Source: a virus. Taken from it: 64,000 nt of DNA. Location of the stretch: positions 20,518 through 84,517 of IMG/VR virus record IMGVR_UViG_3300045988_068671; one strand, 5' to 3'. The stretch's first letter is position 1. Each line of letters begins with the position of its first letter. Shown piece by piece: positions 2,605 through 55,046 of this stretch. The notes under the pieces were generated by a model. The model searched no databases and was not told where the DNA came from. It saw only the letters and a program-made list of their open reading frames with translations. Position numbers and translations under genes: made by a program.

Positions 2605-2605
2605 A

Positions 2606-2818
2606 TCATTGTATTATTAAAGTTTCATCAACTACATCGTGATCTATTCCCTCTATGGAAGCAGTTAGGTCCTCAACAGCCTTCTACAATTCTGCTTTAG
2701 TAGCATAGTTCTTGAGAACTTCCTAGTCTACTCCAGAGCCTCCTCCTATACTTCCTCCAACAACTTTTACTGGTTTGGCAGAACTCTTAAACTGTCCTTC
2801 AATATAAATTGTTCCCAT
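2606..2818 (-). CDS. small hypothetical protein (about 70 aa) with one in-frame TAG
   Basis: ATG 2816-2818, TGA 2606-2608, hand translation. Confidence 0.35.
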
Positions 2819-2823
2819 ATTGT

Positions 2824-4689
2824 TTAAAATATTAATTGTTCATTTTCTCCATCTACCTCTACACTAGAACCTGGCTATAAAGCGTCTATCTTTTTCTACA
2901 ATTCGGCTACGGCCTAGCTAATTAGTTCTTCTACCTCAGCTTTGGTGTAGTATCTCTCTATAAGATATTCGCTCCTAACATATCCAGTATCTTGTAAATC
3001 TTTTTCTCCATAGGTGCAATAATAAGTATCTTCTTCAGTCTTACTATTCTCAACTAGGTCATCATAATCAGCTTGTGGTAAGCATACAAGTTTTGGTACT
3101 TCTTCAGTAATAGCAACTTGCTTGCCTCCAGCAAATAGCCTGTTATCTTCTGTGGTAAGTTTAACAGAACTCTCAATAACTTGCTCAGTTCCTGTTTCCT
3201 CAGAAGGTTCTCCAGTTGTTCCCTATTGTACTTCTTTTTCTCCAATTTTCTAAATAGTAATATCAGAAGTTTCTACTGATGTAGATTTCAAAAGCTCAGT
3301 GCTAAATTCTTTAGCAGCAGCAGCCTAATCATCCTGATATTTTTTCTAGGTAACAAATATGAAATCATCATCTCCGGTTTCAGGAGAGTCTCCCCTTAAA
3401 CTTTCTTTTGTTACGTAATCTTCGGCTATCTAATCTGATAAATCAGATAATGACTATTGAGTAGCATAAGTAGACTGAGCATTTTCCTTAGTAAGAAATT
3501 TGTCATCAACCTGCTAAATAGTATAATAAGCCTTAATATCTTCTGTAGTAACGTAGTTTCCAAGTTTTTGCAAACCTTGAACTATTTCATCAATCTACTT
3601 CTTGGAGTAATAATTTGTAGCAACCCAGGACTGATATTGATTGGTAGTATGATAATTCTAATCCAAATATTCCTTAGTAATATAAACCTTTGCATCATTT
3701 GTGACGTCATATACATAGTAATATGTATCAGGCTCTACCGTCCCTTCCTCTACTAACTTTAGATACTCTTCTTCAGTTAATGTTACTAAGTTCGGAATAT
3801 CCGATTCAGTAGCAATCTAATCTTCACCTATAAATAATCCTTCAGACCTAACGTCTACTACTAACTAGCTCTCTCCCTCTACTACAGGAGATTTTATCTA
3901 TCCAACAGTGATGCTTTCTAAGGAACCATCTCCATCTACCTTTAAAGTCTTATCTAGCTCATCTTGAATAGCCTATTGGTCTTCGTCATACTATTTCTTT
4001 GTAACAAAGACAAAATCATCTCCTTCCATTCCTTCTCCTCTAAGACTTTCTTTGGTAACAAATATGTCATCAGTTTCTTCCTTAGTATAATGGTTAGATA
4101 AGGCTTTAGATAACAAGGACTCTGGGTCCTCTAAATCTAGATCAGTTTTAGGGGCATAATTCTCAGTTAACTCTTCAAGGGTAGCATACTTGGAAAGGTT
4201 AGAGATTGTCTAGTCTAAATCCGTTCTAATCTGTACGACAGTAGTATTTAGAGCTTTCTATTTCAACTATTCCTCTATCTTTTTACCCCATTCTGCTGAT
4301 AAGTAAAACTAATCATCATCTAGGCTGTCTTCATATATATAATAATATGTTTCTGCATGAAGATATGTTTTATCTTCGTCTATAGGTTTAAAATCTTCTG
4401 TGGTATTTTTAGACCATTCCTTATATTCAGCCTCTGTACAGGTGATTATCTAAATAGATTCATAAGAAGCTTTCCAACCTTCTTTGTATTTAATCTTAGA
4501 CTTATCTACTAGCATATAAATATTTCCGTTATCTATATTTGAAACGGTCATGCCTTGATAAGCATATTTCTCCGGAATAGAATATAATTCGTCTAAATTA
4601 TCGACTACTGTTCTATTATCAAGAGGTTTAGGAGTTTCTACGGTTAAAGCAACACCTAATGTAGCATCACCTGTATATTTAAATGCCAT
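2824..4689 (-). CDS. tail-fibre-like repeat protein (about 621 aa) with many in-frame TAG
   Basis: repeated motifs (EEYLKLVEEGTVEPDTYYYVYD / EEVPKLVCLPQADYDDLVE...TYYC); ORF piece 4450-4689 ends at TAG; length divisible by 3. Confidence 0.55.
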
Positions 4690-6278
4690 TATTGTGATAA
4701 AGTAAAGTTAATTTGATGAGGTAGTGCTGAAGAGTAGGTATCCTTCTTAGTCCATACTTTATATGGGAATCCATTTATTTGTTCAGTAGAAGCTTCCCAA
4801 CCATTCAGATCGACATTCAAATATCCCAATCCTCCATCTACTGTGAAGGAATTTAGCTGAGTATTACTTCCTGGTAGTTTTATAATAGCCCTACCGCTTA
4901 ACGAAAATGTAATAGTGCCAGAAGCCTAATTAAATGGAACTAAAGACTATTTTATTAGCCCATCAGTATTTCCGGAATACCAAGGATAAGTAGCTGTTAC
5001 TTGTGCAGTTGCTGATATTGAACCAGCTTCCACCCTCTTGTCTGTAACCTCTCCCTTGTTGTTAATAAGATATTCTCCAGCAGCATAATTTACGGTACCA
5101 GAATGCACATAAACACCGATAGAATCATATGTTTCAGATTCTACAGGAGAATCATTATAGGTAATAGTTTCTTCTCTACCAGTTTCCTCTCCAGCATCAT
5201 TTTTTATAAATGTTAAAGTAGGGGTAAGTAAAGCGGATCCTACCTCCACAATCTAAGAGGTGAAGCTATAATACAACTAAGGATAAACCAAATCTCTAAC
5301 AACAGTAGGAAATAATAGAGTATCTATAATCTCATTAAACGGCTTTCCTTTCAATTTTTCGACTGTAGTTCCTTGAATAACAGTAGAAGTAGTATCATCT
5401 GGAAGTTCAGTTTGATAAGTGGCTATAGTTTCTAAACTTGTCTATATATTTGTGATATTCTTAGTATTGGAATCTACTTTAGAATCAGTGTTCTTCTAAG
5501 CTTCCTATACCCCCTTAACTTCTTCCTTTACCTCTGTTAGAGATGGTTCCAAGTCTTTTACATATATTCCAGGTAAAACTACTGTGGAAGGCTCCCCTTC
5601 CTCCTCTACTGGAGGAATTTCCTACTTAATCAGATGTATTGCATTATCCTCCTACTAAGATAGAATTACTTCTAGAGTATTATCATCCTTTATTTCTATG
5701 GTTTTGGAGTTTTTTAGACTATTAGTTATCCAATTCTAGATGTTTTTGTCAACATCTATATTTTTGATAGACTCGTTAATATCCTCTATTGCCTCATTAA
5801 TCTAGGTTATTTTCTCAGAAAGATTGTTTATGCCAGTTCTGTTAGATTCAATTTCTTCTTCGAGTTCTTCCTTAAGTACAGTAATAGAAGTTCTGATATT
5901 ACTTATATCAACTTTTATTTCCTCTATTTCTTCTGTATTAGCTTCGTACTAACTTATAAAGAATAAAGCATAATCTAAGGCATCTTTTACAGTATTGATA
6001 TTCTCTGCAACATCACTAGTATAAGTCCATTTCTATTCTATGTACTATACTAGATCTTTCTAGGCTTCTATAGTTCCTTCTATATTTCCCCAAAGAAGAC
6101 TCTATTCATCAGCGATGCCTAGATTCTTTCTAACCTTAGCTCTTTCTAATTCAGTTCTATATTCTCCAAGATAATTATTTCTTAAGAGAGGTATAGGTTC
6201 ACTTTTTATTAAATGTCCTTTCTTTCCACAAGGCTTTATATCAGCATTGCTTACCGAAGTGTAAATAGGCTGTATCAT
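4689..6278 (-). CDS. structural protein (about 529 aa), coiled-coil N-terminus, TAG-recoded
   Basis: contains ORF piece 4947-5249; TAA overlaps the next ATG (TAATG). Confidence 0.5.
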
Positions 6279-6433
6279 TATGATTCAATAATTGCTATTT
6301 AATAAATTCGTGATTATCTAATTTTACGGGTAGGTTAATAAAACAAATTAGATTCAAAATATCCTAATAATCTGGTCTATATCCCTTTCTAACCCTTTTA
6401 AGGAAATCCTCATACCTTTTAATAGCCTTTCTT

Positions 6434-7162
6434 TTAAGAGCATCCACAACCTATACGTTTATGTTCATGGTGATTGTTACAGAATCCACCGCAAGTACGG
6501 AACATCGCTAACAATCTTTCAGCTTCCATGAATTGTTTAAAGCCTATTAAATAATCTATAATGTTAAGTGTCATCCAGATAAAATCTCTTGCAAATATAT
6601 CTGCATCATGTTCTCTAGTTAAACACTTATTTAATAAAGAGTCAAAGAGTTTCTTACAGTAGTTAATATAACACTATTGCAGATTTCCTGTAAAGAACAC
6701 ATCTACCTTACATTTTTTGATAGTAGTCCCTTCTATATTTCTTTCAAGGATTTCTTTTACAGTACATTCCTCTAGCTCTCCATCTACTTCTTTATATAGT
6801 TTCTCTCCATCAGTTATATAGATAGTTTCATAATACTCCTTGTATTCATCAGATGAATTTTCATACCATTTCATATTAGGAAGAATTATGTGGTCTACTA
6901 CATAATATCCATCTTCTTTCACCTTAAATGTACAAGAGTCTAAATCCTCTGTATGGTCATTGAGAAGTACGTCTATCAAAGTAGCATCTCCTATACTAAC
7001 TTTTATGATAGTATTTAGGGTAGCACTTTCACTATACTTATAAGAATCATAGGAAGTTACTACCTCTAAATCTTCATCAATATACTATCCATATTCCTTT
7101 GAAAAGTCTTCAATAGTTATTTCCCCGTTAATCTGGGTATGTATATCAATACTAAATTCCAT
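6434..7162 (-). CDS. hypothetical structural protein (about 242 aa), Cys/His-rich C-terminus, TAG-recoded
   Basis: contains ORF piece 6674-6979, which ends at TAG; the true stop is TAA at 6434. Confidence 0.45.
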
Positions 7163-7172
7163 ATTATAATAA

Positions 7173-7907
7173 TTAAGACTCAGTAGTAGGCCATTGACCA
7201 TATTGAGCAGGAGTAGAAAATGGTTTCCACTTACCTTCTTGTCGTATACGTCTAGACATAAAAACTGAACTAAATGATAAACTAATATCTTGAGGATAGT
7301 CTGTCCATGTATATGACTAACCTTCAGGGGTCGGTGGTAGACTATTTAACTTACCAGCTGGTTTTCCATTCCAATAATAATTATAGTCATACGCTTTAGT
7401 TGGAGTAACAGTCGTTGTTTCATGTCCTTCTGAATCTACATATAGAGGATTTCCCTCCTCATCTGTTTTCTACTTATACTCAATAACTGGAGTTATTCCC
7501 TCAGTTCTAGTGTATATATTCTAGATAATAGTAGAAACATCGCTTGCTACAATCTCATAAATAGTAGTTCCCTGAGATTCGTCAGCCCCCTAGAAAGTAA
7601 ATTTAGTTCTTTTCCAGATATATGGATTCTCTTCAGTTGGAAGTTCAAAAGTATCAGTCCACTATTTAGTAGATAATTTTATCTCAGATTCTTCAGCAGT
7701 GTCAGCAGGTAAGTAATGAATCTTAATAATAATATTATTTACCGCTTCACTAGAACCAGAAAGGTCTGACACCTATTTAAATAGTTTCTTTAAATCTTCT
7801 TCCACATTTGATTTAGAACCAGAAGCATTACTAATAATTACTGAACCATCTGAAATAGGATAAATCTATTGCTAATCCTTATTATATACAATTGTTCCAG
7901 TTGCCAT
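7173..7907 (-). CDS. hypothetical structural protein (about 244 aa), TAG-recoded
   Basis: hand translation, ATG 7905-7907, TAA 7173-7175. Confidence 0.45.
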
Positions 7908-7908
7908 A

Positions 7909-10080
7909 TTAATGTATTTGTCTTATTTTGTCATTATATGGATTTCCATCATGAAGCTAAGCCAACTCTATTTCAGTTCTCTTTTCTTCTATATCCATTT
8001 GTCTATCTTTATATGTAGAATCAGATTGAGCTTTGAGCCAGTTAACCTTATATTCTAACTACATTTTCTGCTATTCTAATCCTAATCTCTACTCATCCAA
8101 ACTTTCTATCTTCTACTAAGCTTTCTATAGTTCTTGCTGTAACTGCTATGCCTATTGTGAAGTTTCTTCCAATTTTTCCTATAGCTACTATAGCTAATTG
8201 TTTTCTTCTTTACGAATCTATACTGCTTTCTTAACCTTGTATTTAAGGTCTGTAAGACTCTTAGCAGTTAGTGCTTCAAATATGATGTCAGGATCCATTT
8301 GCTGACTTTTAACAAACTCTGGAATAATAGCTTTAATAGTTTGTAAATCTTCCATTACTTCAGAGCTAGAAGTTATATGGATGTCATAATCAGTAACCGT
8401 AAAATACTCTGGAAGCGCTGTAAATATCTGCTAGTATTTATCTCCAAGTATAATAGTACCAGTCAATCCTTTCTTATATGTTATTTTAGCCTAGTTTAGA
8501 CTATCCAATAATATCTCACAAGTGATTAGGTCCATCTACTAGAAATAATGCTTGGTTACTATGTAAGAGTTAGTAACACCTTGCTTAATATTAGTTACAG
8601 CATCGTGAGTTTCTATTCCATTTAATCTTTCTCTAAATACTCCAGTTATAGATGATGTAGTTTGTTCTACTGATTGAATTGCTAATTCAATAGCCTATAC
8701 AGCCTAAGCTTTTAAGGTATCATCAAATCCATTGTATATCTAGTTAGGTGCTTGCGCTCCATCATTTCTTCCCTCCTAAGTGGAATCAATCCACATGATA
8801 CCACCCTTCTTGTATGCTAACCATTTCTACACTCTTTCTGGCCATTTTACGCCTAGGTTAGTAGGAAGCAATGACATATCCATGATTACTCCAGCAGTAC
8901 CGCTGTTAGCTATCAGGTTGTCCCTATAATAATTTAACAAGTCATATCTATCCTGTAGATGTGCACACTTTAATATCAGAGAGTACGGTTGTTGGGAACG
9001 ATTTAAGAAATATACCCCATTCACAGACAAAGAGCAGAAATTAGGATTATCTTTCGACCTCATAACAGTCTTGTCTAGACCTCTCAGAATATATATTTCT
9101 TCTCCAATTCTAATGGTATTGTATCTCTACATTACAAAATCGTCATCAGTTTCTATCCACTCTACATCATAAACAGGAATTAACTAAAATCTATGAGCAC
9201 TATATTCATTATCTGGATATCCAGGAATAGTTTCATGATTCTAATCTTCGTTTACTATAGTACAAGTGTCACCATAAACTCTTCTATAAACTGCAGCTGA
9301 ATCATCAGCTCTCCATTCATCTTTTAGTCTTTTCAAATCTTCTCTAGAGATTTCTTTTCCGTATTTAGCTAATATCTAGCTTTTACTCATCCATTTTCTA
9401 ACCACAACTCTATACGAATTTCTAACATATGGAGATTCTGGATTCCTATCTACGAAAGTATTTAAAGGATTCAGAACTTCTATTTCTATGTTAGTTCCAG
9501 AAGATGATGATTTTACTCTGAAAAATGTATAGCCAGTAATTAATAAATCTGTAAGTAACTATCGGAGTTTAGTTATTAAATCGGTTTCTCTAGACTGCAT
9601 GATATAATGAATAATATTCTATGCAGCTATCTCATATTGAGAAATAAAAGACTAATCAATGTCTTGAATAATTTTATCTAACTAAGTCTTCACGGCTTTA
9701 TCTGTAATATCTTTTCCGTCGATAAATTTCAGAATAGAATTACTTAAATGGTCTCTAAGAAATTTAACTATTCCTTTAGTTATTTCTAACTATTTTTCTC
9801 TGGTGATATTACTAATGGTATCTGAATCCTTACAAGAAATCTTCGGAAGGATAGGGGTTCCTAGATATTCCCCTACTAGAGCATCTACGTGCTTTTTTAG
9901 TAATGGTGTAAATTCTACAGAAGTAGGACTACCTATTCCAAAGTTTTCTTCCAGGTAACGAAACTATTCTGGGTCTCTCTTTCCGTTATAGTAATTATAG
10001 GCTTTCTATAATTCGTACTTATCATATACAAGCTCCGCAATAGCCTCGTTCGTCTTGTCTATCAGTTCTTTTTCTTTCAT
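7909..10080 (-). CDS. large virion protein, possibly portal (about 723 aa), TAG-recoded
   Basis: continuous frame with about 20 TAG; contains ORF piece 8827-9063; sits immediately downstream of the terminase. Confidence 0.45.
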
Positions 10081-10300
10081 AACATAAATTATGCTGTTCT
10101 GGAGGAAGTTTAGTTGCATTATAGTATTTAACTCTTTGTAACTTCCTACTTCTTAATTCTTCCTTTATAAATGGGAGAAATTCTTCATCAGGTAAATCAG
10201 CTATAATGACTAAAGGCATCTCTGACCTATCAAAGTTAAACGATACCTTATAACCAACTGGATCTAGGTTCTGAATTTCAAGCCCACCTACGTATTCCAT
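10022..10300 (-). CDS. small hypothetical protein overlapping the TerL 3' end
   Basis: ORF-track frame 10022-10483 trimmed to the internal Met. Confidence 0.25.
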   Translation of the reverse strand: MEYVGGLEIQNLDPVGYKVSFNFDRSEMPLVIIADLPDEEFLPFIKEELRSRKLQRVKYYNATKLPPEQHNLCYERKRTDRQDERGYCGACI

Positions 10301-12638
10301 TTTGTACAAGTCTCTCATATAACCTAGGATCACTTGTTTCAATTCTGTATGGGTCATCGTATTCATTTTTTTGTATGTTAGTTTCAAAAGTCTTAGAAGT
10401 TGGTATAACCCCAAATCTTTTGATTCCTCTCTCGTCGTAATAATAACCATAATCTTGGAATTGTTCAACTTCTTTTTCAACAAGCACTGGCTATCTTCCT
10501 GACAATTCCTAGTCTGCCAATTCTGTCATTCCTACAGCGGCTACAATATCGAATTTACCTTTATTCTCATCATTATATCCAGTAAATTGGTCTAACATTT
10601 CTTCAAACCATATAGTATGACAGAAATCCTCAATAAAGGCTGCTGTCAAATCAGTATGTTGTTCTATAATAGTTTTGGTAGCGGGTGTTCCGTACTATTT
10701 AGTAGTTCCATTCTTGACGTCTGTTAGAGTAGCTCTAGGTCTTTTCATAAAGTAGTTTAAACAACCCTTTTCTCTAGCCCAGGTAATCATACCTACACGG
10801 GTAGCTTCTATGTTTATTCTACAATTATAGTATCTAGCTAAACACATAGCTATTTTATAGGCTTCTCTAATGTCATTAGGTCTGTCTTTATACATAGCAA
10901 CATACTACGGTTCGTTTAGACCAAATGCTCTTCTTTTTATAGTTATACAGAAATCAGAAGGATCTCTTGTTTCTTTTGAAGTTTGACTAGCTCCTATATC
11001 AATACCGTCTATTCCTGCAACATATAAATCATGCATTTCTTTATACGCTGGAGATTCAAATTCTTCTCCCCTTTCCTCAGCTTCCTGTCTAAGTTTATCC
11101 ATCTATTCTTTATACAAATCAGACCATACAGGATGTTCAAGTATCTTTACTTTTCCGTTAATATTAGGAATCCATTTAAAACCATCTATATTATCCTAGG
11201 TGTGTTTATTGTTTTTATAGAAGTAGTCTATGTATCCAGATTCTGGTCTTGGTCCTATTTTCTTAAGTCTTATATTAGCTAATTGGTCCGCAATAAGAAT
11301 CTTGTTAAACTTGTTGACACCTTCAAGATTAAATGCTTCTTCTGCATTCCAACATCGTTCTGCACACTTCTTTAGATAGTCATCTGGAACCGCTAATAAG
11401 TTATCACGCTCTTCCTATAGATACTTCTTATATTCTACTGTATTACATACACCCCTATGGTCCATGTATTCTGAATTTAGGGACTAGACAAAATACGGAA
11501 TGAAGAATCCACTTTCAATAGTAGTTCCATCCTATGTATAATTATGTCTAAATGGAAGAACTTTGTAAGCTTTTGGATTGTAATATATCTTCTTAAGACC
11601 TGCTAATGGAGCACCCATATCACCACCAGTACCTCCAAATAACATTGTTCCACGAGGTTTACCCTGAACTTCACAAAGCTCTTGCCCCTGCACTACAGCA
11701 GTATCTAGTCCAGGCCAAGACCCTGCTTCATCATATATTAATAAGTCAACACGGTCTCCACGAATATTAGATGCCTTAGCTCCATTTATTCCAACTACTT
11801 CTGATTTAAATCCAACATCCTCAAACTGTCCGTTTACCTTAATCTGTTTACCAGACTTTTTTCTTAAGTCTTGGTCAATCAAACGTAGTTTGAAGAATCC
11901 CCCTCCTGTACAAGTATTCAAGAATGTTAAAGCATTATCAAACTTACTAAAAGTACCTTTAAGGAAGGTATCATTAAAACAAGTAATCATTACTCTGCTT
12001 CTTCTGATTACTGAATACATTCTTGCAGATAAGGATGCATTTATTTCAGAGAATCCAATAGAACGAGCTTTCATTAGAGCTGCGTGTTTATGCAGGACTC
12101 TAGCCATCTACAGATAATGAAAGAACATATAATGAGATGCGAAAAATATAGGAAAGTCACTACTTGTTCCTTCTCCAGATGCTTTGTTATCATCAATAAT
12201 AGGAAGCTAGTAGAAGTTTAGGAAGAAATAGTTATCTCCAGTAATTGTATAACCATTAACAGTCATTCCATATTTACATCTTCTATACTATTCCTTCCAA
12301 AACTCATTATATCTCTTACTATCTTTTAGATATGGACAATACTTTCCAGTTTTTCTATATACTTCTCTAGTCTCAGTAAACCAGTCTGGGTCGAAGTCAA
12401 GACCATGTGTCTCATCTATTGGTCTATATCCAGTTATTTCATAAGATAAAGTAGGGTCAAATACTTCTATCTTATCTCCTCTTTTTACATCCCAATAATC
12501 AGCATTTTTGTCCCTTTCTTCTCTTATCTTCTATACTAGTTCTCTAGCTTCTTTGGCATCCTCTTTTTGTTCTTTCTCTCTTACCTAATCTACTATATTC
12601 TAGATTTCTTCAGGTAATATTTTTTTCTTTCTAGGCAT
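10278..12638 (-). CDS. terL: terminase large subunit (about 786 aa) with about 12 in-frame TAG
   Basis: Walker-B-like GDRVDLLIYDEAGSWPG, C-terminal nuclease-like region; ORF pieces 11532-12107, 10905-11102, 10695-10895 and 10278-10487 are co-frame. Confidence 0.7.
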
Positions 12639-12640
12639 AA

Positions 12641-13207
12641 TTAAAAGTCTCCTGGGTCAAAGCCGTCTGTAGCTCCACCTCTTACAGTAGATTGTTCTGT
12701 AAGCTCTTTCTTAACCTGCTCTTCTAGTGTTACTAATTCTTCATGAACTTTATGAAGAGTAGCCATTTCTTTCATTACCTTTTCAGCTTGAAAGACGGGT
12801 TTGCCATTATTATCACGTTCATTTAAATCTACTATAGTATCAAAATAATCAATAAACTAGTCAGCTGCTCTTTTAGCTGCTTCTAGAAGTTTTATTGATT
12901 TGTTAGAATCCTACAATGCTCGGTATTTTCTACAGGCTTCCCTGAATAACGGGTCATTAAATTCGGATTCAGATAGTCCAGAGTCACTAATAGCTTCATC
13001 ATGTCTTTCATGTTCTGAATATTGGCTATAAGGACTCTTCCAATCAATAGCTAGATAAATGTAAGACAATTCTCTAGTTACTCGTTCCTTGTCAACAGAT
13101 TTATCTCTCTGTATCAAAGCCTTAAACTCTTTAACTAGAAGAAGCTCTGGTTCATTTATCTCTAACTATTTAGTTAAAGTGTTATAATTAAATACATTCA
13201 TACTCAT
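12641..13207 (-). CDS. possible terminase small subunit (188 aa), TAG-recoded
   Basis: position immediately upstream of terL; TAA overlaps the terL ATG; contains piece 12911-13117. Confidence 0.4.
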
Positions 13208-13237
13208 CAATCATTAACATTAACATCTTTAATCTTT

Positions 13238-14455
13238 TTATTTCATTTTAGAACCGCATTTACTTACTTTCATTTTAGAACCACAAGCATCCTTCTTAGC
13301 ATACTTTGTTCTATCTGGAACCCATTTTCCATTTTTGAAATTTCCCTTGTGTCCCCTGTTCGCCATAACCTCCTGGTCATTATATTTATTAATTGATACG
13401 GAATCTCTGGACGCTTCATCCTTTGCAGATTTCATATCCTTTTTATACTAAGCTCTTCCAGCTTTGAACTTGTCAACTTCATTAGCTTTCTTAGTAACCT
13501 TAGTTCCTTTCTATGCTTTTTGGCAAGCTTTGCAGATTCTTCCTCCCTGTTTAAAATAAACAAGTTCCTCTCCTTCTGGGCATACTCCTTTTAATTTTTT
13601 ATAGTATTCTAGTTTAGCTCCAAGTCTAGCCATAACTCCGCCTTGCATCTTCTACATAAATTCTTGATACTTGGCTTTGATTCCATCTTCTCCTAATTGC
13701 TGAGCATATTGTTCTAAATCCTACTCAGATTGTAATTGTATTCCTTGTGCTGCGGCATCCTGTATTAAGTATGCCATAAATGCTTTTTGTAATTCTTCCT
13801 AATTAGCCATTGCTCCTCCTTGTTGATATTTAACTCGTTGCTATCTAGCAGTTGCCTTTGGTATATGTTCCCAACTTCTCTAATTTTTGAGCTATTCTGG
13901 AGTTAGTTTCTGCCCATACATATTAGTTGTAGGCGGCTTTATCCATTGTTCTTGGATAGTTCCAGTATGCTCTCCAGTTTCCTAGTCTACTTGATTTTGG
14001 TACGTAGTAGCTCTTTTTCCGTCTTGACTATATGTAACATAGGGATTATTCATTACTGGAGTTCCTACCTCTACTGTTGCTTTCTTTCCATTAGCTAACT
14101 ATGTTCCATACACTCCTTTCCCCCATTTGAATTGAGTTAGTCCTCTCTTTCTGGCTTCTCTAAATGCTGCACCAAACCCCTAGACTCCTCTTAAGTCGTC
14201 GTTTTGAATTTGTTGCTAAGGTGCATTTATTTTCTTAGGAATAGTAGGAGTAGACGGCTTTAATCCTAATATAGGTTTTTGTTGTATAGCTGGCACAGCA
14301 CTTCTTTTCTTCTACTATGCAGTATTTCTAATAGAGTTCGGATTACTTTGCCAAGTCTAATGCAACTGTTGTAAAGTTCTTCCGTCTAACTCTGCGTCTC
14401 CATATATAGTCTTGATATGCTACATTAACTCTGGATCAAATTGTATTTTCGCCAT
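13238..14455 (-). CDS. Gln/Lys-rich hypothetical protein (about 405 aa), TAG-recoded
   Basis: C-terminal piece 13238-13435; continuous frame upstream with many TAG. Confidence 0.45.
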
Positions 14456-14665
14456 TATTCTTCTACTTTAATTAAGTCTTTTGTATTAAATACTGCTTCC
14501 TGCATTAATCCAGAATCAGTAAACCATCTACATCTTAGTCCTCGTAATCCTTGGTTATCTTTAAATAAAGCTGCTTCTCTTCTTAGAACAAGCATAACTG
14601 GAGAGTGCATTACTTTACACTACCGTAAAGTAACACAATCCCCAGGCTTAAAATAAACTTTTTCA

Positions 14666-15283
14666 TCAATTGTTTCCATGCTTCAATTCGTCTCTTCTTT
14701 CAGTTAGTTTCTCATTAACTACAGCCATGATTCTATTCTCATTAACTACTACAAATCCTAGTTTATAGAATGGAACCATACATTCGCTAGCTATTGTATA
14801 AAATACAATATCTCCAGGCTTCAAGAACTCACACTTGTGTCCTACTTCTATCACAGTTCCTACTTTAATAAATTGTTGTTCTTCTTCAATTTCTCCAGTC
14901 TCATTAGATTTATAAGTAGGAGTAAATCCACCTAAATCAGTAATAAGACCACTTTTAGTAGTTTTTATTTTTTGGAATGGGTTTCGTTCAAAAGGTTTAA
15001 TTAATGCATACCCATACATCGGCATAATTTCAAGTCCATTCATATCGTTAGATAATGACTTAGCGTAATCCTCTAGTGCCTGATTATGTTTGGAGAATTT
15101 ATCCTCTAACTCATCTACTGCGGTATTAAACTTCTCTTGTTTTTCTCTTAATAATGTTTGGTCTGCAGCTTCTCCATTTAAAATAAAATGTTCTCCCGTA
15201 CCTTCCATTCCAGTTAATGATAGTGCTAGTTTTTCGTTACTGTTTAATTCTGTTCTTAAAGTTTCCATAATCCATTTTACCAT
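14666..15283 (-). CDS. hypothetical protein (205 aa)
   Basis: complete ORF with TGA stop and no internal TAG. Confidence 0.55.
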   Translation of the reverse strand: MVKWIMETLRTELNSNEKLALSLTGMEGTGEHFILNGEAADQTLLREKQEKFNTAVDELEDKFSKHNQALEDYAKSLSNDMNGLEIMPMYGYALIKPFERNPFQKIKTTKSGLITDLGGFTPTYKSNETGEIEEEQQFIKVGTVIEVGHKCEFLKPGDIVFYTIASECMVPFYKLGFVVVNENRIMAVVNEKLTERRDELKHGNN

Positions 15284-15666
15284 TTACATAAATCACAATG
15301 TTCATCTTCAATTCTTGTTTTATTCTCTAATATACAACCACATTCATCGCACACTTCCCCAACAGATGTTTGTAATTTATGGGAACAAGCGTCACAAATT
15401 TTTAATCTTTTGGTTGCCAAATCTTGATTTATTCCGAATATATTGAAATATATACTTTTCAATATTGTCAAAGGTTTAGTAAATATTGCTTTAATCCACT
15501 TCCATATCATATCTTTTTCCTCCTTTGTTTCCCTATTTATATTTTGGACAGTAAGTATATAATGCTTATCTAGTTTATATAATATAGGAGTTCCATAAAT
15601 TACCATTTCCCTGCTGGACAATGTTTCTTTTCGTTTGGAATCTTCTTCTCTAGTAAACATCCACAT
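15277..15666 (-). CDS. Cys-rich zinc-finger-like protein
   Basis: C-terminal CxxC...HCDLCKW, paralogous to 15600-15815. Confidence 0.45.
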   Translation of the reverse strand: MWMFTREEDSKRKETLSSREMVIYGTPILYKLDKHYILTVQNINRETKEEKDMIWKWIKAIFTKPLTILKSIYFNIFGINQDLATKRLKICDACSHKLQTSVGEVCDECGCILENKTRIEDEHCDLCKW

Positions 15667-15815
15667 CCCTTTATATACCCTTCTTTAGGGCTTATACTTA
15701 TATCATTATTCTTTGGATTTAGATACAAATGCCCATTACATAATCCATTATCTTGGTCACATATTGGACAGCGTCTACATATCTCAAATCTTTCTTCTAT
15801 TTCCTCTAGTGTCAT
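15600..15815 (-). CDS. Cys-rich zinc-finger-like protein
   Basis: CRRCPICDQ...HCPAGKW. Confidence 0.4.
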   Translation of the reverse strand: MTLEEIEERFEICRRCPICDQDNGLCNGHLYLNPKNNDISISPKEGYIKGCGCLLEKKIPNEKKHCPAGKW

Positions 15816-15817
15816 AA

Positions 15818-16732
15818 TTAATATTCAATACGTTGACGTTTTCTTTTATTTTCTGCCAATATAGATTCCTTCTTATAGAAGGCTAGCATTTTTATAACCT
15901 CATCTTTTAGATATGGCAAATGATATACTGTCATATTATCATTATGGTCGAAATGTACCAAAACCAAATCCTCTATTTCAAACTCTGGATTTTTCTTTTG
16001 AATCATCCAAGCATAAGTACTTAATTGTAAAGTATAGTGCCAGTAATTAACATCATCTAAATTATTTAGAGGATATTTCATCTTAACAGAAGTTTTAGTT
16101 TTAGAATTGAAGAAACTCTTAGTTTCTATTTTCTTATTGGTCTTCCAGTCTCCTATAATTATCTTATTTCCTCTTTTAACTAATAAGTCAATCTGTCCTG
16201 CTATTCTTAGCTTTCCATCATCCGATACTCTAGATATTAAATACTCAGGATATACACCATTCTCTAAGTCTAATTCATTGTGGTCTTTTATACACTCGAA
16301 CTTGCCACCTATTTGATATTTACTAAGGTCTATGTTCTGTTTCTTTTTATAGAAAGAGTTTTCCAAATCTGCATGGATTTTAGTTCCCCTCTCGCATGAG
16401 TTTCTATTCTCTAAATCCCAAGCATCTAAGATAGCTTGTTGCTCTTTATTAAACTCGTCTTCTGTAATGTTATGAAGTTCAAGTAGAACTTTATCAAATT
16501 TCTTAGTGTTTAACAAAGACTTTTTTTCTATAGCCCAATCTTCTTTAGGTAAGAGTTTCTCTAGTGCTTTATATGCTGACCAGAACTCCTTATCAAATGG
16601 TTGGGTGAAAGAATGAATTAAAGTCGTTACAGATATAAACTTCTGTTCTGGCTTTGTAACATCATAATAAATATGAGCTTCTTCCTCAAAAGCTATGTTC
16701 CCATTTTGTTTTGTAATTTTACTTTTGTCCAT
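15818..16732 (-). CDS. PD-(D/E)xK family nuclease-like protein (304 aa)
   Basis: motif GQIDLLV...IIIGDWKT. Confidence 0.5.
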   Translation of the reverse strand: MDKSKITKQNGNIAFEEEAHIYYDVTKPEQKFISVTTLIHSFTQPFDKEFWSAYKALEKLLPKEDWAIEKKSLLNTKKFDKVLLELHNITEDEFNKEQQAILDAWDLENRNSCERGTKIHADLENSFYKKKQNIDLSKYQIGGKFECIKDHNELDLENGVYPEYLISRVSDDGKLRIAGQIDLLVKRGNKIIIGDWKTNKKIETKSFFNSKTKTSVKMKYPLNNLDDVNYWHYTLQLSTYAWMIQKKNPEFEIEDLVLVHFDHNDNMTVYHLPYLKDEVIKMLAFYKKESILAENKRKRQRIEY

Positions 16733-16846
16733 TAGTCATAATTCATTTAATCATTTATCACATTTATCTATATTTATTTGATACTTTTCAAGTATATTAA
16801 TATTCTTTGTAAGATACAAATCAATAAATAATACATTATATTAAAA

Positions 16847-18638: not shown

Positions 18639-18655
18639 AACTATTAATTTTGGCG

Positions 18656-18727
18656 TTGCCCTACTAGGATTCGAACCCAGACTAAATGATTTAGAGTCAT
18701 CTGTGCTGACCATTACACCATAGGGCA
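18656..18727 (-). tRNA. amber suppressor tRNA, anticodon CUA (reads UAG); resembles the window's tRNA-Gln
   Basis: full cloverleaf: acceptor TGCCCTA/TAGGGCA, anticodon arm GATGA-CTCTAAA-TCATT, T-loop TTCGAAT; D-arm identical to tRNA-Gln at 33540. Confidence 0.8.
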
Positions 18728-18864
18728 GTATTTATTTCTCTTTTAGAGATTTATTCTCCGCTGCCAATTTCTCTAGTTCTTTCCTTAGCTGTTCGTTTTC
18801 GTGAAATAAAGCCTACATGGTTGCATTTACATTAGCAAGAAGTATTCTTATTTGAGCTATTTGT

Positions 18865-19266
18865 TCATACATATGCTTTCAGTTGTTCTATTTTCATAGT
18901 TACCACATTAGATAATGCCATTCTGAATTTAGTAATTCCAGCTCTTACTGATTCCAATTTTCCACTTTCCAAACATTCTTGAATTTTATTCAGTTCGGAT
19001 TCCCCTAGATATTCGCAGACATCTATAAATAAATCATCATCTAAAGATTCTAAGTATTTCTGGAATTTGCCCACTTCTTCATTAGCTAGACAGCTTTCCT
19101 CTTTCTATCTCTCATAAGATATTAATAAGAATAAAGAATCATCTGTAGATTCCGCTTTAATGGTTAGACCATTACTTGATAGATAATACTCCTAGTTCTT
19201 ATTAATTGCATCAACGAGATTCTTAAACTCGTCCTAATTTAGTAATGTTTCTAAGTCTGTAATCAT
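18865..19266 (-). CDS. hypothetical protein with 3 in-frame TAG
   Basis: piece 18865-19074 extended upstream in frame to ATG 19264-19266. Confidence 0.45.
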
Positions 19267-20032: not shown

Positions 20033-20083
20033 AAGATTGGGGAGAAATCCCCTTTCTTTTATATACAAATAATCTTTGTAGTT

Positions 20084-20278: not shown

Positions 20279-21071
20279 CACGACTCTCTCGTGTATAAAT
20301 AAGTCAAACGTGCAACTCTAAGGTATTACGAGTATAAATAAAATGCCCATATGAACTCCATCATTGGAACATTGGTCAACGGAGAAATCAACAACAAAAC
20401 AAAAAAAAATCAAAACCGAGTTAACTTTTGTAGTAGTTTTAGTTTTTATGTCTGGCTGATAGGAAAGACTATCATTTCTTTTGAAAATTCAGTTTCACAA
20501 AAGAAAATATGGGCAAGTAAGGAGAAGAATGTTCCACAAACTCAAAGGCAGATTTTCCTACTTTTTCCAGTTTTCAAAAAATCGCCAGTAGGACGAGTTT
20601 TATAACTCATACTACAATGATTATTTACTCTAACATTAGCCTATAAAAAGGCAACAAAAAGCGGGGTTACGCAGATAGCCCAATATCCGAAAATAACTGC
20701 TATTAATGAAAATGAGAGTTCGCAAACTTATCTCATGAGTAAGGAGGATTGAGCTATAAGATTGGTCACTTATAGCAATATATGAAAGTACTGCTGACAT
20801 ACCAGTAGACCATGTATGTCATATTTTTATATGTTATGCAATTGTATTAGAAGTTGCCTGGTATAAGCCGCTAGATTAATAAGGCTAGCTGATAAGAGGA
20901 TACCTCATAAGGGTATATTTCCTACCTCGAACTCAGTCGCAAGAATATGGATTAGCTACCTATATTCTTAGTGAACGTTAGTAACGTAGCTATTTGATTT
21001 TCAGTATAGGAAACTGAGAATTAAGTAGTTGAATAACTCTCTATCTTATACTAGTTGCCAAGATAGAGTTT

Positions 21072-21141
21072 TCCCCATTAGTATAATGCATTGCGCCTTC
21101 CTCTAAAGAAGGAGATTCTGGTTCAAACCTGGAGTGGGGAA
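21072..21141 (+). tRNA. second amber suppressor-like tRNA, anticodon CUA; D-arm atypical
   Basis: perfect anticodon arm CCTTC-CTCTAAA-GAAGG, T-loop TTCAAAC, acceptor TCCCCAT/GTGGGGA. Confidence 0.55.
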
Positions 21142-21284
21142 CTTAGTATTTGAGGACTACAGCTACTTGTAGGCTCTATTTGCTGTTAAGGACTATAATG
21201 GGTACGCCCAGAGACTATGTAATTGTTGTGAAACAATTCAAAGGAGAGTGGCACAGGAAGGTCTTTTGATAGTGTTCATTTTTT

Positions 21285-21310
21285 ATCCCCACAGCGGTGG
21301 GGATATTTTT
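21285..21310 (+). terminator. rho-independent terminator ATCCCCAC-AGCG-GTGGGGAT plus T5
   Basis: seen in sequence. Confidence 0.5.
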
Positions 21311-21404
21311 AAAACTCAGCTTAGGAGAGTATAAAATACCATCTGATGAGACTAGGACGAAATATACTTTGTATATAATGGTATAACTAATTAAAACTAA
21401 GAAG

Positions 21405-21632: not shown

Positions 21633-21956
21633 ACAATATACAGAACGCCTATCGCTGTAAAGACTGGCAAACGCTCACAAGTTACTGTGAGCAAAAGATT
21701 GCACATGAAGATTGAACGCAGAAACATGTGGGAACTAAAGAAGAGAGGTCAGGCAGTTCAAGGTAGTTCCGCTTAGTGTTTATCCTACTAAGTATCACTA
21801 CACGGTCAGGTTGGAAGACTGACATTTAAAAAACTCAATAACTTCCCAAGACATTGAGGGCACCAGTTTCTTTATTATAAAACGCGCGCAAACTATCTAA
21901 TAGATGTGAGTTGCTGCTCATAAAGTTTTAGGTGTAAAATGCAATACTAGTTATAT

Positions 21957-22292
21957 ATGAAAGAGATAAAAATTCTAGAAACAACAAAAGTTCTCTCTGA
22001 TAGAGAGGCTGATTTACTTTGTTCCATATTATGGTCTTTAGGTATTTATCCAGAGATTACAGCACTTGAAAGGAAAAATAGAAACATTACACTGGCGAGT
22101 ATTCTTCCAGAAATGCAACCTAGGACAGCTAGCCGTATTAGAGCTATGTTGGATGATCAAGTTTATATCTCTCTCAACATTTTCATGGAAAACTATTCTT
22201 GGCGTGATTTCATGAAAATGCCTGGTGTTGGAAGGAAATCGCTAAGTGATTTAAGATCAGTTTTGCAAAAGTACGGATACAAAACATTCTAA
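21957..22292 (+). CDS. hypothetical protein (111 aa)
   Basis: ORF track. Confidence 0.5.
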   Translation: MKEIKILETTKVLSDREADLLCSILWSLGIYPEITALERKNRNITLASILPEMQPRTASRIRAMLDDQVYISLNIFMENYSWRDFMKMPGVGRKSLSDLRSVLQKYGYKTF

Positions 22293-22421
22293 CTCGACTT
22301 CGCGAGTATAAATAGGCTTTAGGCGGAGAGCGGTAGGTAGAATAGTCTACCTACGTAGTGTAAAATACTTGCTATTTAGCAAACAAATGTGTAGTATTCT
22401 ATAAATAAAAATTAAATATTT

Positions 22422-23612
22422 ATGGAAGACAAAGTAAAAGAATTTAGAGACAAAAATCCTATACTAGACTTCCTAGCAGGATTTATTCCTGGAGTTGGAG
22501 AAGCATAGGACGCACATGATTTTATTCATGCCGCAAAAGATAAAGATTATATAAGTATGGGTTTAGCAGCTACAGGCTTAATTATTCCAGGAATCACAGG
22601 AGGGCAAATAAAGAAACTTTCAAACGTTTTAATAAAGAAAGGTTGGCGAGAAACGAAGGGAAGAATATTTGACCCATAGGGAGTTGAATACATTAGGAAT
22701 AAAGAAGGAAAACTTCAAAGCTTATCATCTTACAAACAGACTCAAGCCGTAGAAAAAAGAATTGAGGAAAATAAGTCTAAGGCTAAAGCCAGATCTAATC
22801 AACAAAAGAAAGTAATCAAAGAACATAACGAAGAAGCAGAAAAGTTTAGACTTCGAACGGGACTTGATTATTCTTTAGAAAATTGGCAATCACTAGCTTC
22901 AGGACATAAGATGTCACAAGAGGAAATAGACTTATTCACCAAAAAAGCTTTTCCCTAGTTTGTTCAAACTTATAATGAACTAATTAAGTCTGGTAAGCTG
23001 ATAAGATAGCCTAGTGGAAGATATACTGCTAATGGAAGGAAGAATCTAAGCAACATAGAAACTATGTATTATATCTAGGCAAACTCTCCTCAAGGTAAGA
23101 ATCTTTTATATAATGGTATCACAATGAGGTCTGGAATTAAGGATAAACATAGTTTTGAAACCGGAAAAAATAACCAGAATTATGAGAAATGGTTCAGTTC
23201 TAATCCCAGAGGAGCAAAAGCTTACGGAGACTTTGCAATCTGGGGACTACCAGTTAAACCTTCTATAATTAATCCCAACTGGGATGACTAGATTAGGCTT
23301 ATAAAAAGGCAGAAAGCTAATCCATCTTCTAATAATTGGGCAGGAGGTCCAATAGGTGCTTATTTAAGCAAGGATAGAGCACGTTCTGTAAATATGTCTG
23401 AAGGTGTTCTTACAGACGATTATGCAACATAGGTTCTTAATTCTGACCCTATAAAAGGAGTATTTACTATAGTAGGTCCAGATATTCCTGTAAAATCTGT
23501 ATTTGGAGGATCTGGAATGTATGATGTTAGTCCCAAAAAGCTATATAATCCATTCTTATCTCTTACCATGATGGGAATGCTAGGTTATAAACATTTAAAT
23601 AAAGATGAATAA
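22422..23612 (+). CDS. hypothetical protein (about 396 aa) with 7 in-frame TAG, in a region the ORF track shows as empty
   Basis: single frame ATG-to-TAA, length divisible by 3; TAG at 22506, 22677, 22956, 23007, 23076, 23289 and 23430. Confidence 0.55.
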
Positions 23613-33611: not shown

Positions 33612-34477
33612 CTAAATACAGCTTCGCTAGGGAGACCTAGCCTTGCATACCAAGAGGCGGTAAAGTCAGCTGAATAAATCCGTTGCGGTATTACCTAGTA
33701 ATAATCTAAAGCTAGCTAAAGAATAACTAGGAACATAGGGGTAGTAAGGCTGTATTTCTAAATTATATAATTATGGATAAGGAGAATTACAGAAAAGTAG
33801 TTAAAATCTGTGAGAAAGGCAGATGTAAAGTGAGAGAAAATTCATTTGGAGTTTGTTGGTGTGTAAGATGTGGTAAATTACACTCTGATGCTCCAGCTAA
33901 GTTAAAACCTGAAGAGCAAATCATAGTAAAATGAAAGTGATAATTAATAGCTGTTTACTTACAGAACTACTAAAGAATTTCCAAACTTCTCTAGATAATA
34001 TGAGAGTTATTGGAGAAACGTATTCTGTAGAAGATATGAATGAGCTGGTTGAGGAGTTTGCTAAGTTTAACATAAAGCCTGATGATATTATCGGTAAAAC
34101 TATAATATTTAAATGTCAATCAATAAGTGCTTATGCTTAACGTAACTTCTTTCAATATTGGGGAGATAACTAGTAAAGTATCTCTAAATACTCCCAGTAG
34201 CGGAATAATCCAGAGGTCTCATCCTAGAAGTAAATTCGTAAGGTTTCATTCTAGGTCTTCTATGTCAGAATACGCATTCTCTAGTAGACCAAGACTAAGT
34301 AAGGATGGGCCAGAAATTGTAGTATTGCAGATTATGGTATTCGGTAATGATGAATTGCTGGTTGAATATGTCTGCGAACAGGAACTAACAGTAGAATAGG
34401 TTATTAGACCGGTAAATAACCTTCCGTAGCCAGTCGGACGTTGGGAGCTTATAGTCCTACGATAGTGAGACTAAATC

Positions 34478-34552: not shown

Positions 34553-34567
34553 CTAGAGAATTAAAAA

Positions 34568-34984
34568 TTGGAATTTATGAATTATCAGTATTTCGGATTG
34601 TTTTTAAATGAACATAATAGGAATGAGCTTATGAAAATCATTTTTGCTAATCCTATTATAGCTAATCTGGTCCTTCAAAGAGGAAGTACTTTATATCTAG
34701 ACCATTGTACTCTGCTCCACAGAAATCAAAACGACAAAGAGATATATGACTCTCTTGTAAAGAAGATTGATGAATCATGGATGGTAGAAGTAAATGGGAT
34801 AGGTTTCTCTAACAAAGCAATAGCTTTTAGAGTTACTATACCAGACTTGCCTTGTGCAAATGCTAAGCCACATATTACTATTTGCACAATCAATGGAGGA
34901 AAACCAGTTGATAGCAATGGAATATGCGAGTGGATTTCTATTCCCAAACTCAATATTTGTTGTGAAATAAAATTAGTGAAATAA
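34568..34984 (+). CDS. hypothetical protein (138 aa)
   Basis: ORF track. Confidence 0.45.
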   Translation: MEFMNYQYFGLFLNEHNRNELMKIIFANPIIANLVLQRGSTLYLDHCTLLHRNQNDKEIYDSLVKKIDESWMVEVNGIGFSNKAIAFRVTIPDLPCANAKPHITICTINGGKPVDSNGICEWISIPKLNICCEIKLVK

Positions 34985-40629: not shown

Positions 40630-40702
40630 GGGCCGTTAGCTCAAATGGCTAGAGCGCTGGTTTTGCACACCGGAAGATAGGGTTCGAGTCCCTGCGTGTC
40701 CA
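40630..40702 (+). tRNA. tRNA-Ala(TGC)-like with G3:U70 but a partly mismatched acceptor
   Basis: loop TTTGCAC. Confidence 0.45.
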
Positions 40703-42591: not shown

Positions 42592-43154
42592 GGGCCTACT
42601 TGGATTTGACAGGCGATTACGAATTATAAGGACGTGTAGAGCGCAATCTCTTTAAACGAAGAAAACAAATAACTGCAGAAATTGCACCTGTAAGAATGGC
42701 AGCCTAAGCTGCTGACTTATTAATAGACAATATTAATCAAGTCGGGTTAATGGGGAGACCTAGAAACAGAAGAGGTTTGTATCTAAGTGTTATAACGAGA
42801 CCTTCAGGGAAGAATCATAGTACCTACAGGTTACAGTGAAGCTTAGATGCATTAACTTGAAAGCCAAAGGTTAGTAGAGCTGAAATCTCCACTGCCTATC
42901 TATGGGCTACAAATAGACGTTCTCCAACGTAAATGGAGTGGTGGAAGAATGACTTCTAGTCAGCCCCCAGTTTGGTAGTTTGTAAATTAGTTAGTAGGAG
43001 GACTGCTGGTTCACCTCTACTGTAAAGAATCCAGCTCTTCTAATAAAACTATCTAAATGCTAGAACTCACTAGCTGATGTAATAAAAATGAGACGCACGT
43101 TATCCTTGTAATAAGGGTTGTTTGGACACGGGTTCGACTCCCGTTAGGTCCACA
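42592..43154 (+). ncRNA. ssrA: tmRNA (ssrA-like); tag reading frame 42675-42707 (AEIAPVRMAA-stop)
   Basis: 5' GGGCCUACUUGGAUUUGACAGGCG and 3' GGACACGGGUUCGACUCCCGUUAGGUCCA closely match E. coli tmRNA termini; G3:U70. Confidence 0.7.
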
Positions 43155-43178
43155 TGACAGGGCTATAGTTCAACCGAT

Positions 43179-53197: not shown

Positions 53198-53592
53198 AGA
53201 GGCTATGAAGTTCTATCCGTTTGATTATGGTTTTGTTCTCTCCCTAGAGAAACAAGCTTTAATTAGAATGTATGAATACTTCAAAGTATCTAGAATTGCT
53301 GAAGGTAACGAAGTTGTTGAAAAGAATCTAAAACTCGCACTAGGACTTTTAGATATTGTTCTAGAGATAGATTCTGCCTATCATTGTGATTTCAGACCTG
53401 GGTCTGAAGGATTCGTAGATAGGCACATAAACATTAAGAACTGGAAACGATTCTGGCCTAAAGCTGCTGATCTTGATTTGAGTAAACCTATTCTTCAAGA
53501 CCATTTGAGAAGAGAAAAAGCCTGGTACTTGTACAATAAACTTAGGTTTGAACGTATGAGAACTTGGTGGGATTAATTTAACTAATTTAATT

Positions 53593-54609: not shown

Positions 54610-55046
54610 AGTATAAGAAAAAAGTAGCTTGGTTAAAGGCAAAGCAAGCATGGTGGGATAAACAAGGAAAAGATTTTCAGGCTGCAACTACCAGACCTGG
54701 GTCTGTTAAAACTCGATAAATCATGGTTGCATTTATAATTGTGTGCATAATGTTTGCCGCGTATATTTATTATGACCCGTATGTAGACATTACAGAGGAT
54801 AATGTACTACTATGGTATAATAAAAGTGGCAATAGAGAATATATTATTCTATGGTCGAGAAAAACTTAATTAAGGCATTTGTTGCCGTTCTGTTAATCGT
54901 TGTGATTTACAACGTCAGCTTATGGTTATTATCCGAATCATTGTATGCTGCAAATATCTTGGGGTTGTTACTATTACTAGTGGCAATCCCAAGTTTAGTT
55001 TATAGGATATTCAAATACATTAAGAAACATTATTTAAATAAGGAAA

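Follow-up and report, generated by a model that had tools for sequence, protein, structure and literature searches.

The phage from which the 64,000-nucleotide stretch of DNA analysed here (the window) derives very probably uses genetic code 15, in which TAG specifies glutamine, for its late genes, with one of its tRNAs, Sup1, acting as a glutamine-inserting amber suppressor and another, Sup2, as a second suppressor. The reading of TAG as Gln in the late genes is strongly supported, and the window is a member of the known TAG-to-Gln (code 15) recoding system of crAss-like phages. Phage TAG recoding with suppressor tRNAs is well documented (bioRxiv 10.1101/2021.08.26.457843; PMC7886860; PMC9523058; PMC12386605; PMC10879173), and a model linking recoding to the late genes has been presented by Borges et al. 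(bioRxiv 10.1101/2021.08.26.457843). The window provides a clean, controlled case for this picture, in which phages gate late-gene translation by a suppressor tRNA; the only parts that seem not to have been described yet are the cassette containing Sup2 and the CUA/UUA polymorphism of its anticodon.

The window has a G+C content of 35.6% and carries 27 tRNA genes recognized by ARAGORN, two of which, Sup1 and Sup2, have the anticodon CUA (Table 1). Its large terminase (TerL) shares 26-29% identity with the terminases of classified Crassvirales and 42-46% with those of two unclassified human-gut phage contigs, and the nearest relatives of the window are contigs of 185-195 kb. We infer that the source is a large crAss-like gut phage of ~185-190 kb, Zeta-like, with architecture as the sole basis of the Zeta placement; the host is probably a member of the Bacteroidales.

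Table 1. Features of the window bearing on TAG recoding and the two CUA tRNAs.
Feature	Coordinates	Strand	Basis
TAG-recoded late block	787-14467	-	ORF scan reading through TAG; PHROGs matches (tail, portal, TerL)
TAG-free genes (GroES-like, zinc-ribbon, PD-(D/E)XK exonuclease)	14666-16735	-	No TAG in 645 codons
Sup1, tRNA(CUA), putative core amber suppressor	18655-18727	-	ARAGORN; Rfam tRNA model, 66.3 bits (gathering threshold 29)
Two small TAG-containing genes	18732-19266	-	ORF list; same strand as Sup1 and immediately upstream
RAGATH-14 RNA (orphan Rfam family)	20849-21042	+	Rfam, 183 bits (gathering threshold 149); 30 nt upstream of Sup2
Sup2, second CUA tRNA, putative accessory suppressor	21072-21142	+	ARAGORN; Rfam, 32.6 bits (gathering threshold 29)
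Terminator-like hairpin	21284-21305	+	9-bp stem followed by TTTTT; 142 nt downstream of Sup2; consensus match only
Phage tRNA-Gln(UUG), closest tRNA to Sup1 in the window	33540-33612	+	ARAGORN; structural comparison (47/65)

TAG codons in the late genes

Reading through TAG in an ORF scan raises the long-ORF coverage of the window from 28 to 49 kb and renders TerL and the portal protein, both of which match PHROGs families, full-length. Annotation of the window requires TAG to be read as Gln, without which the genes for terminase, portal and tail break into fragments. The nine late genes contain 123 in-frame TAG codons next to 88 CAA and 33 CAG, such that TAG accounts for half of their Gln-type codons. 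As many as 34 TAGs are found in the portal gene and 15 in the large terminase gene, with the rest distributed over the tail protein, several structural ORFs and others. The main true stop codon of the window is TAA.

The use of TAG is concentrated in the late block, but is not confined to it. The TAG-free genes listed in Table 1 lie between Sup1 and the recoded block, none of the 25 ORFs tallied as controls outside the block contains a TAG, and the 22 plus-arm ORFs among the controls, chosen for having no TAG, comprise 5847 codons. In-frame TAGs are present in some other ORFs of the plus arm, for instance, in 22416-23612, which has seven. The same holds for the two small genes adjacent to Sup1 (three TAGs in 18865-19266 and one in 18732-18872); the former has homologues in 58 related loci, in which its TAGs are either kept or replaced mostly by Q, N and K.

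The five relatives examined for recoding are all recoded. TerL genes of relatives contain 18-23 TAGs at partly different positions, and TAG is exchanged with CAA and CAG at aligned codons. We compared nine genes with those of twelve relatives at the codon level. Opposite the TAGs of the window, the relatives carry TAG 338 times and an amino acid codon 498 times, 254 of which specify Gln. The resulting frequency of Gln (0.51) closely resembles that opposite true Gln codons (0.49), and Gln is ahead of the next-best amino acid by about 680 log-likelihood units. Conversely, CAA/CAG codons of the window are aligned to TAG in the relatives in 23% of cases, compared to at most 3.7% for codons of any other amino acid. 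The alignment of homologues thus bears out the proposal, made previously from the sequence, that Gln is inserted at UAG, and agrees with the metaproteomic demonstration of TAG-to-Gln recoding in crAss-like phages (PMC9523058).

Two other sources of evidence were set aside. The presence of Q at TAG positions in database homologues (P0001-P0120) is circular as proof of Gln, because those genes had been called with TAG as Q: in six database hits checked at the DNA level, the standard code does not give the database protein. Distant non-recoded homologues, namely, TerL of MT835470.1 (42% identity, no TAG) and cr109_1, are too diverged for position-by-position use. In some relatives, TerL is enlarged or interrupted: P0003 is a protein of 1131 aa with intein/LAGLIDADG domains, and the loci L037, L063, L066 and L069 show frame breaks and extra DNA inside the gene, which indicates that TerL of some relatives holds inteins or introns.

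Sup1 and its relationship to tRNA-Gln

The two CUA tRNAs reported in the earlier note are real: ARAGORN and Rfam accept both folds, with coordinates within one base of those given before, and the anticodon CUA is confirmed within a CUCUAAA loop in each case. In both, CUA occupies positions 34-36, and Sup1 further features U1-A72, A73 and a 4-nt variable loop, with no encoded CCA. In a gap-free alignment of 16 distinct sequences, including Sup1, its counterparts from the relatives and tRNA-Gln, 97.6% of the stem positions are paired and 14 pairs are changed on both sides; the corresponding values for 12 distinct Sup2 sequences are 96.8% and nine. None of the 500 shuffles reached these values in either case, and given these compensatory changes, neither tRNA is a chance fold. 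Single-sequence folding energy, as usual for tRNAs, is not discriminating (z-scores of -2.3 for Sup1 and -1.0 for Sup2).

Sup1 occupies a syntenic site in nearly all related loci, on the late-gene strand 2-3 kb upstream of the exonuclease gene. The earlier description of Sup1 as lying at the edge of the recoded arm is approximately correct: the gene is some 0.6 kb into the leftward arm and precedes the first TAG-heavy late gene by 4.2 kb, with the TAG-free genes located before the late block. The next ORF starts about 17 nt after Sup1. Sup1-type CUA tRNAs are common on crAss-like contigs: a search pattern that covered D-arm and anticodon loop matched more than 119 IMG/VR contigs, many of them 85-103 kb in size, and a CUA tRNA was present in 111 of the 114 loci that were re-examined. 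An apparent loss of Sup1 in one relative, L041 (IMGVR_UViG_3300045988_113697), was rejected, since an insertion of ~1 kb, carrying an ORF for an HNH-type endonuclease, splits the gene (positions 5366-6438) there between U35 and A36 of the anticodon. The insertion, which had no match to the Rfam intron model at E <= 1, resembles group I introns in its boundaries, with U as the last base of the 5' exon and G as its own last base. The suppressor tRNA of L041 would be one interrupted by an intron.

The provenance of Sup1 proved less straightforward than the earlier note implied. Outside the anticodon loop, Sup1 is closest to the tRNA-Gln of the window (47/65 positions, compared to 44/66 for tRNA-Thr and 44/68 for tRNA-Met), and it aligns over 73 nt without gaps with phage and Bacteroidales tRNA-Gln(UUG), which have the same length and variable loop. 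In the acceptor, Sup1 shares 11-13 of 15 positions with Bacteroidales tRNA-Gln but only 8 of 15 with the tRNA-His sequences that have its D-arm, and it has the U1-A72 pair and A73 of the former rather than G1-C72 and C73 of the latter. The likeness of the D-arm to that of tRNA-Gln, on which the previous claim had also relied, was discarded as a mark of tRNA-Gln, since searching bacterial genomes for this sequence recovered 98 tRNA-His of Patescibacteria versus 14 tRNA-Gln. Indeed, the D-arm sequence UAUGGUGUAAUGGUNAGCAC is common to tRNA-His(GUG) of many Patescibacteria and to tRNA-Gln of Bacteroidales and others, which cautions against isotype calls from D-arm likeness. Nor does the body as a whole separate the two, with overall identities of 46-49/66 to tRNA-His and 47-52/66 to tRNA-Gln. 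With the D-arm found mostly in tRNA-His, the argument for descent narrows to the acceptor end.

Comparison with the determinants of glutaminyl-tRNA synthetase (GlnRS) gave a similarly divided picture. The identity set of the Escherichia coli enzyme comprises U1-A72, G2-C71, G3-C70, G10, U35, A37, U38 and G73, and Sup1 has U1-A72, G2-C71, G10, U35 and A37 but carries C3-G70, A38 and A73 in place of G3-C70, U38 and G73. However, the E. coli rules may not transfer, given that the recovered Bacteroidales tRNA-Gln also have A73. Overall, derivation of Sup1 from tRNA-Gln appears moderately supported by the sequence comparisons; it is safer to say that Sup1 resembles the substrates of GlnRS in a Bacteroidales host.

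The D-arm scan (L083-L202) also recovered four tRNAs with the anticodon CUA, on phage contigs that seem to have been mis-binned. Sup1-type tRNAs are present on contigs assigned to bacterial MAGs, namely, L158/L136 (DXLM01000001.1, 186 kb, 'Bacteroides sp.'), L164 (CALEBD010000406.1, 'Clostridium sp.'), L182 and L121. L158 and L164 carry the same tRNA as the window, L182 a version with 2 of 73 positions changed and L121 a more distant one, with 60 of 73 positions shared; DXLM01000001.1 also carries a phage-type tRNA-Gln. These contigs appear to be phage genomes that were assigned to bacterial MAGs during binning.

Sup2 and its RAGATH-14 neighbour

Sup2 shares U1-A72 and A73 with Sup1 and, as previously described, has an atypical D-arm, which consists of a 3-bp stem with a U.U mismatch and a 6-nt loop, AAUGCA, that lacks GG. 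This odd D-arm, along with two adjacent G.U pairs in the T-stem, accounts for the low Rfam score; orthologues from the relatives score 53-58 bits as tRNA, the copy in the window being the weakest of the family. Among the 12 distinct Sup2 sequences, compensatory changes are found in all four stems, with the D-stem pairs completely replaced in some, and 11 sequences retain a 7-nt loop of the form C-U-(C/U)-U-A-A-A, with U33 and A37-A38 intact, so that Sup2 is predicted to always read a UAR stop codon. Judging from this pattern of covariation, Sup2 is a structurally constrained tRNA. A search for its parent tRNA gave no clear candidate: identity of about 50% to many tRNAs of the window represents the baseline.

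The distribution of Sup2 is patchy. It is missing from a subclade with 72% identity that is still TAG-recoded, with 15-20 TAGs in TerL. Among the related loci, the anticodon is CUA in 19 and UUA in 10 (about a third), and two further loci, L014 and L036, have aberrant anticodon loops. Its absence from the subclade and these damaged loops suggest that Sup2 may be dispensable or partly decaying. Furthermore, L029 and L035 are 99.7% identical over the late region, yet carry different Sup2 types. Sup2 is thus an accessory, fast-evolving, mosaic cassette, the type of which does not track the late genes.

Within the clade, the association of Sup2 with RAGATH-14 is constant. The two are separated by 26-55 nt in L012, L022, L025 and L041, with RAGATH-14 upstream, and in a pattern scan of IMG/VR, RAGATH-14 is followed by Sup2 in 15 of 15 contigs of the ~185-kb clade but in 0 of 15 smaller crAss-like contigs. 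A general rule joining RAGATH-14 to tRNAs was accordingly discarded: the association is limited to the clade, and crAss-like contigs of ~50-107 kb with RAGATH-14 have no tRNA downstream. The RAGATH-14 and tRNA cassette provides a first functional lead for RAGATH-14, and its CUA/UUA polymorphism is a natural experiment on the extent of TAA read-through that can be tolerated by a phage or host. It is possible that the hairpins at 20039-20052 and 21284-21305 bracket a transcription unit consisting of RAGATH-14 and Sup2; eight terminator-like sites were found, compared to 2.5 expected. A scan for sigma-70 promoters, the consensus of which does not cover Bacteroidota or phage promoters, gave no more hits than in shuffled sequences.

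Does Sup2 decode at all? It might be a decaying duplicate or, by analogy with mascRNA/MALAT1, a tRNA-like RNase P signal that sets the 3' end of RAGATH-14, with suppression being carried out by Sup1 alone. We consider this the less probable reading, if one to be taken seriously, for the low score and the structural oddities of the D- and T-arms, the invariable joining to RAGATH-14 in the clade, the lack of Sup2 in a subclade that is still recoded, the variation of the anticodon among near-identical genomes and the aberrant loops of two relatives would all fit. However, compensatory changes in four stems exceed the needs of a processing signal or a pseudogene, all but one of the distinct sequences keep a loop suited to UAR, and the scores of the orthologues are those of proper tRNAs. 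We favour the view that Sup2 is a second suppressor, carried in a mobile RAGATH-14 and tRNA cassette in the opposite gene arm. Most likely, it would add to suppressor dosage or provide a differently timed supply, a decoding activity suggested by the conservation of its structure and anticodon loop, and it probably also carries Gln.

A bolder interpretation, which we regard as unlikely, is that the cassette is a separately transcribed, horizontally shuffled code switch, composed of RAGATH-14 and a compact tRNA, with the anticodon toggling between CUA (amber) and UUA (amber and ochre) in genomes that are otherwise nearly identical. If both forms of Sup2 are functional, UUA-type Sup2 would favour read-through of TAA, which is the principal stop codon in phage and host. 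The cassette would then be a tunable termination regulator or a weapon against host translation, and RAGATH-14 would be a leader or a processing/regulatory element, giving a function to this orphan RNA family.

It is still less to be expected that the relatives with UUA-type Sup2 also read through or recode TAA, moving toward two reassigned stops or corrupting host termination. The UUA anticodon is found in an otherwise intact tRNA (57-58 bits) at 10 related loci, and suppressors have been suggested to serve Zeta crAss-like phages as weapons against the host (PMC12386605). Nevertheless, there is no in-frame TAA in TerL (zero in the UUA genomes L022, L024, L031, L033 and L041) or in the other long late ORFs of these genomes, ORF lengths are the same, and the ratio of TAA to TGA stops is 33/8 in the UUA genomes compared to 22/5 and 20/4 in CUA genomes. 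With no in-frame TAA and stop usage unchanged, TAA does not appear to be recoded in the UUA genomes; besides, the possibility concerns the relatives, Sup2 of the window being CUA. A UUA anticodon also reads UAG by wobble, and hence need not signal recoding of TAA. Any-frame comparison of TAA and CAA in pairs of near-identical genomes was uninformative.

Downstream of Sup2, on the same strand, there are two self-cleaving ribozymes, a RAGATH-1 hammerhead (21313-21382, 68 bits) and a pistol ribozyme (22292-22360, 63 bits), and a sub-threshold match to the type III hammerhead (24082-24131, plus strand, 23 bits). This cluster is interleaved with small accessory ORFs, some of which contain TAG, and suggests that the transcript is cut into pieces.

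Proposed decoding mechanism, known systems and further features

In the proposed mechanism, Sup1 would be transcribed from the late-gene strand, processed and provided with a CCA end by host enzymes. It would then be charged with glutamine by the host GlnRS, which is presumably used given that no phage aminoacyl-tRNA synthetase was seen, and to which it would present the acceptor end of Bacteroidales tRNA-Gln (U1-A72, A73) and C34-U35 of the Gln anticodon. C34 and U35 are GlnRS determinants, and the A36-A37-A38 loop context is typical of efficient UAG readers. Glutamine would be inserted by Sup1 at the 123 UAGs that lie in frame in the structural genes, including those for tail, portal and terminase; the late genes would be untranslatable until the suppressor accumulates, whereas TAG-free genes would be readable by the standard code of the host. 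The 34 UAGs of the portal gene alone require near-complete read-through, because at 34 sites, efficiencies of 0.9 and 0.99 would yield about 3% and 71% of full-length product, respectively. This, in turn, implies that release factor RF1 would be strongly outcompeted or disabled by means not visible in the window, where about 28 ORFs include no aminoacyl-tRNA synthetase, release factor or RF1 inhibitor.

The label 'tRNA-Pyl', which ARAGORN attaches to both Sup1 and Sup2, is merely its name for the anticodon CUA. A tRNA-Pyl has a 6-bp anticodon stem, a 3-nt variable loop, one base between the acceptor and D stems, a tiny D-loop and no T-psi-C, whereas in Sup1 and Sup2, the anticodon stem comprises 5 bp and the variable loop 4 nt, positions 8-9 hold two bases and the T-loop contains UUC. 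Neither thus has the architecture of a tRNA-Pyl, and no pyl-like genes were found among the ORFs scanned. That UAG specifies some other residue (Lys, Glu, Trp, Tyr or pyrrolysine), or is ambiguous with Sup1 and Sup2 inserting different ones, is highly improbable: apart from the ARAGORN label, it could draw on K and E being the next most common opposite TAG, on the lack of an identifiable parent for Sup2 and on the Trp, Ile and Tyr isotypes predicted by tools for some phage suppressor tRNAs (PMC10879173), but every other amino acid trails Gln by about 680 log-likelihood units or more, the frequencies of K and E opposite TAG (0.094 and 0.086) equal those opposite true Gln codons (0.077 and 0.097), two-component mixtures assign at least 94.5% to Gln and at most 5.5% to any second residue, and Y and W, each one mutation from TAG, almost never occur opposite it.

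Glutamine insertion at UAG is consistent with what is known of other phages. The window resembles code 15 gut phages in its low GC content, crAss-like terminase, concentration of TAGs in structural and packaging genes with many ORFs lacking them, CUA suppressor with a Gln-like body, TAA as the main stop and no phage aminoacyl-tRNA synthetase seen. It differs in nothing essential, except that there are two CUA tRNAs on opposite arms and that Sup1 lies inside the late-strand arm, preceded by two TAG-containing genes. Code 15 recoding with a phage-encoded tRNA-Sup(CUA) was reportedly described, for crAss-like and other gut phages, by Ivanova in 2014 and Yutin in 2021.

The suppressor supE of E. 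coli is a tRNA-Gln with the anticodon CUA and a weak suppressor, and GlnRS is known to mischarge amber suppressors. Like supE, Sup1 has an anticodon one base from the Gln anticodon CUG and the U1-A72 pair; unlike in supE, there is A73 rather than G73, C3-G70 rather than G3-C70, A38 rather than U38 and a CUCUAAA loop. Furthermore, unlike the weak suppression by supE, that in the phage must be nearly complete.

The Zeta crAss-like phage Lera has a genome of 179.6 kb with 26 tRNAs, including two suppressor tRNAs, and recodes TGA to Trp, with a UCA tRNA and an apparently idle CUA tRNA (PMC12386605). As in Zeta phages, the relatives of the window, itself a 64-kb fragment, are about 185-195 kb in size, 27-28 tRNAs are gathered in one arm with the virion genes in the opposite one, homing endonucleases and a reverse transcriptase are encoded by the relatives, and two suppressor tRNAs are present in some members. 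By contrast with Lera, both suppressors of the window are CUA and the recoded codon is TAG.

Suppressor tRNAs associated with theta (HDV-like) ribozymes are also known in gut phages, being defined by a minimal HDV-like ribozyme with a cleavage site <=5 nt from the tRNA 3' end (PMC10879173). The similarities include a recoded phage of gut Bacteroidota, no encoded CCA and a region rich in self-cleaving ribozymes (RAGATH-1 hammerhead, pistol). However, no HDV-like ribozyme was detected in the whole window at E <= 5 and none abuts Sup1 or Sup2. The ribozyme nearest to Sup2 is the hammerhead 170 nt downstream, past the terminator-like hairpin, with RAGATH-14 30 nt upstream instead.

Several features of the window are unrelated to recoding or only loosely connected to it. 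An additional tRNA (40630-40702, plus strand) is recognized by Rfam only (39.5 bits); its anticodon, read by eye, is UGC (Ala), it has a G3.U70 pair, and ARAGORN probably missed it due to the imperfect acceptor stem. Rfam also places a tmRNA at 42592-43155 (plus strand; 68.8 bits versus a gathering threshold of 47), with no ARAGORN call; at 564 nt for a 374-position model, this may be a phage tmRNA carrying a large insertion. Within the tRNA array, a small ORF (34565-34981, plus strand) encodes a tRNA-ligase cyclic-phosphodiesterase domain (PF08302, E = 6e-8), which could heal the 2',3'-cyclic phosphate ends produced by ribozyme or nuclease cleavage. The TAG-free plus-arm ORFs 56702-58291, 31014-32990, 55038-55874 and 53560-54609 include a nicotinamide/nicotinate phosphoribosyltransferase, two SPFH/Band-7 proteins and an OmpA-like beta-barrel, with auxiliary roles unrelated to the suppressor tRNAs. 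Finally, two stretches of the plus strand (21821-21944 and 24089-24126) are 93-100% identical to unannotated intergenic DNA of very distant crAss-like phages of ~100 kb, including cr109_1, cr53_1, cr10_1, cr131_1 and others; the former, for which there is no matching Rfam family, could represent a conserved RNA not described so far or one end of a mobile element.
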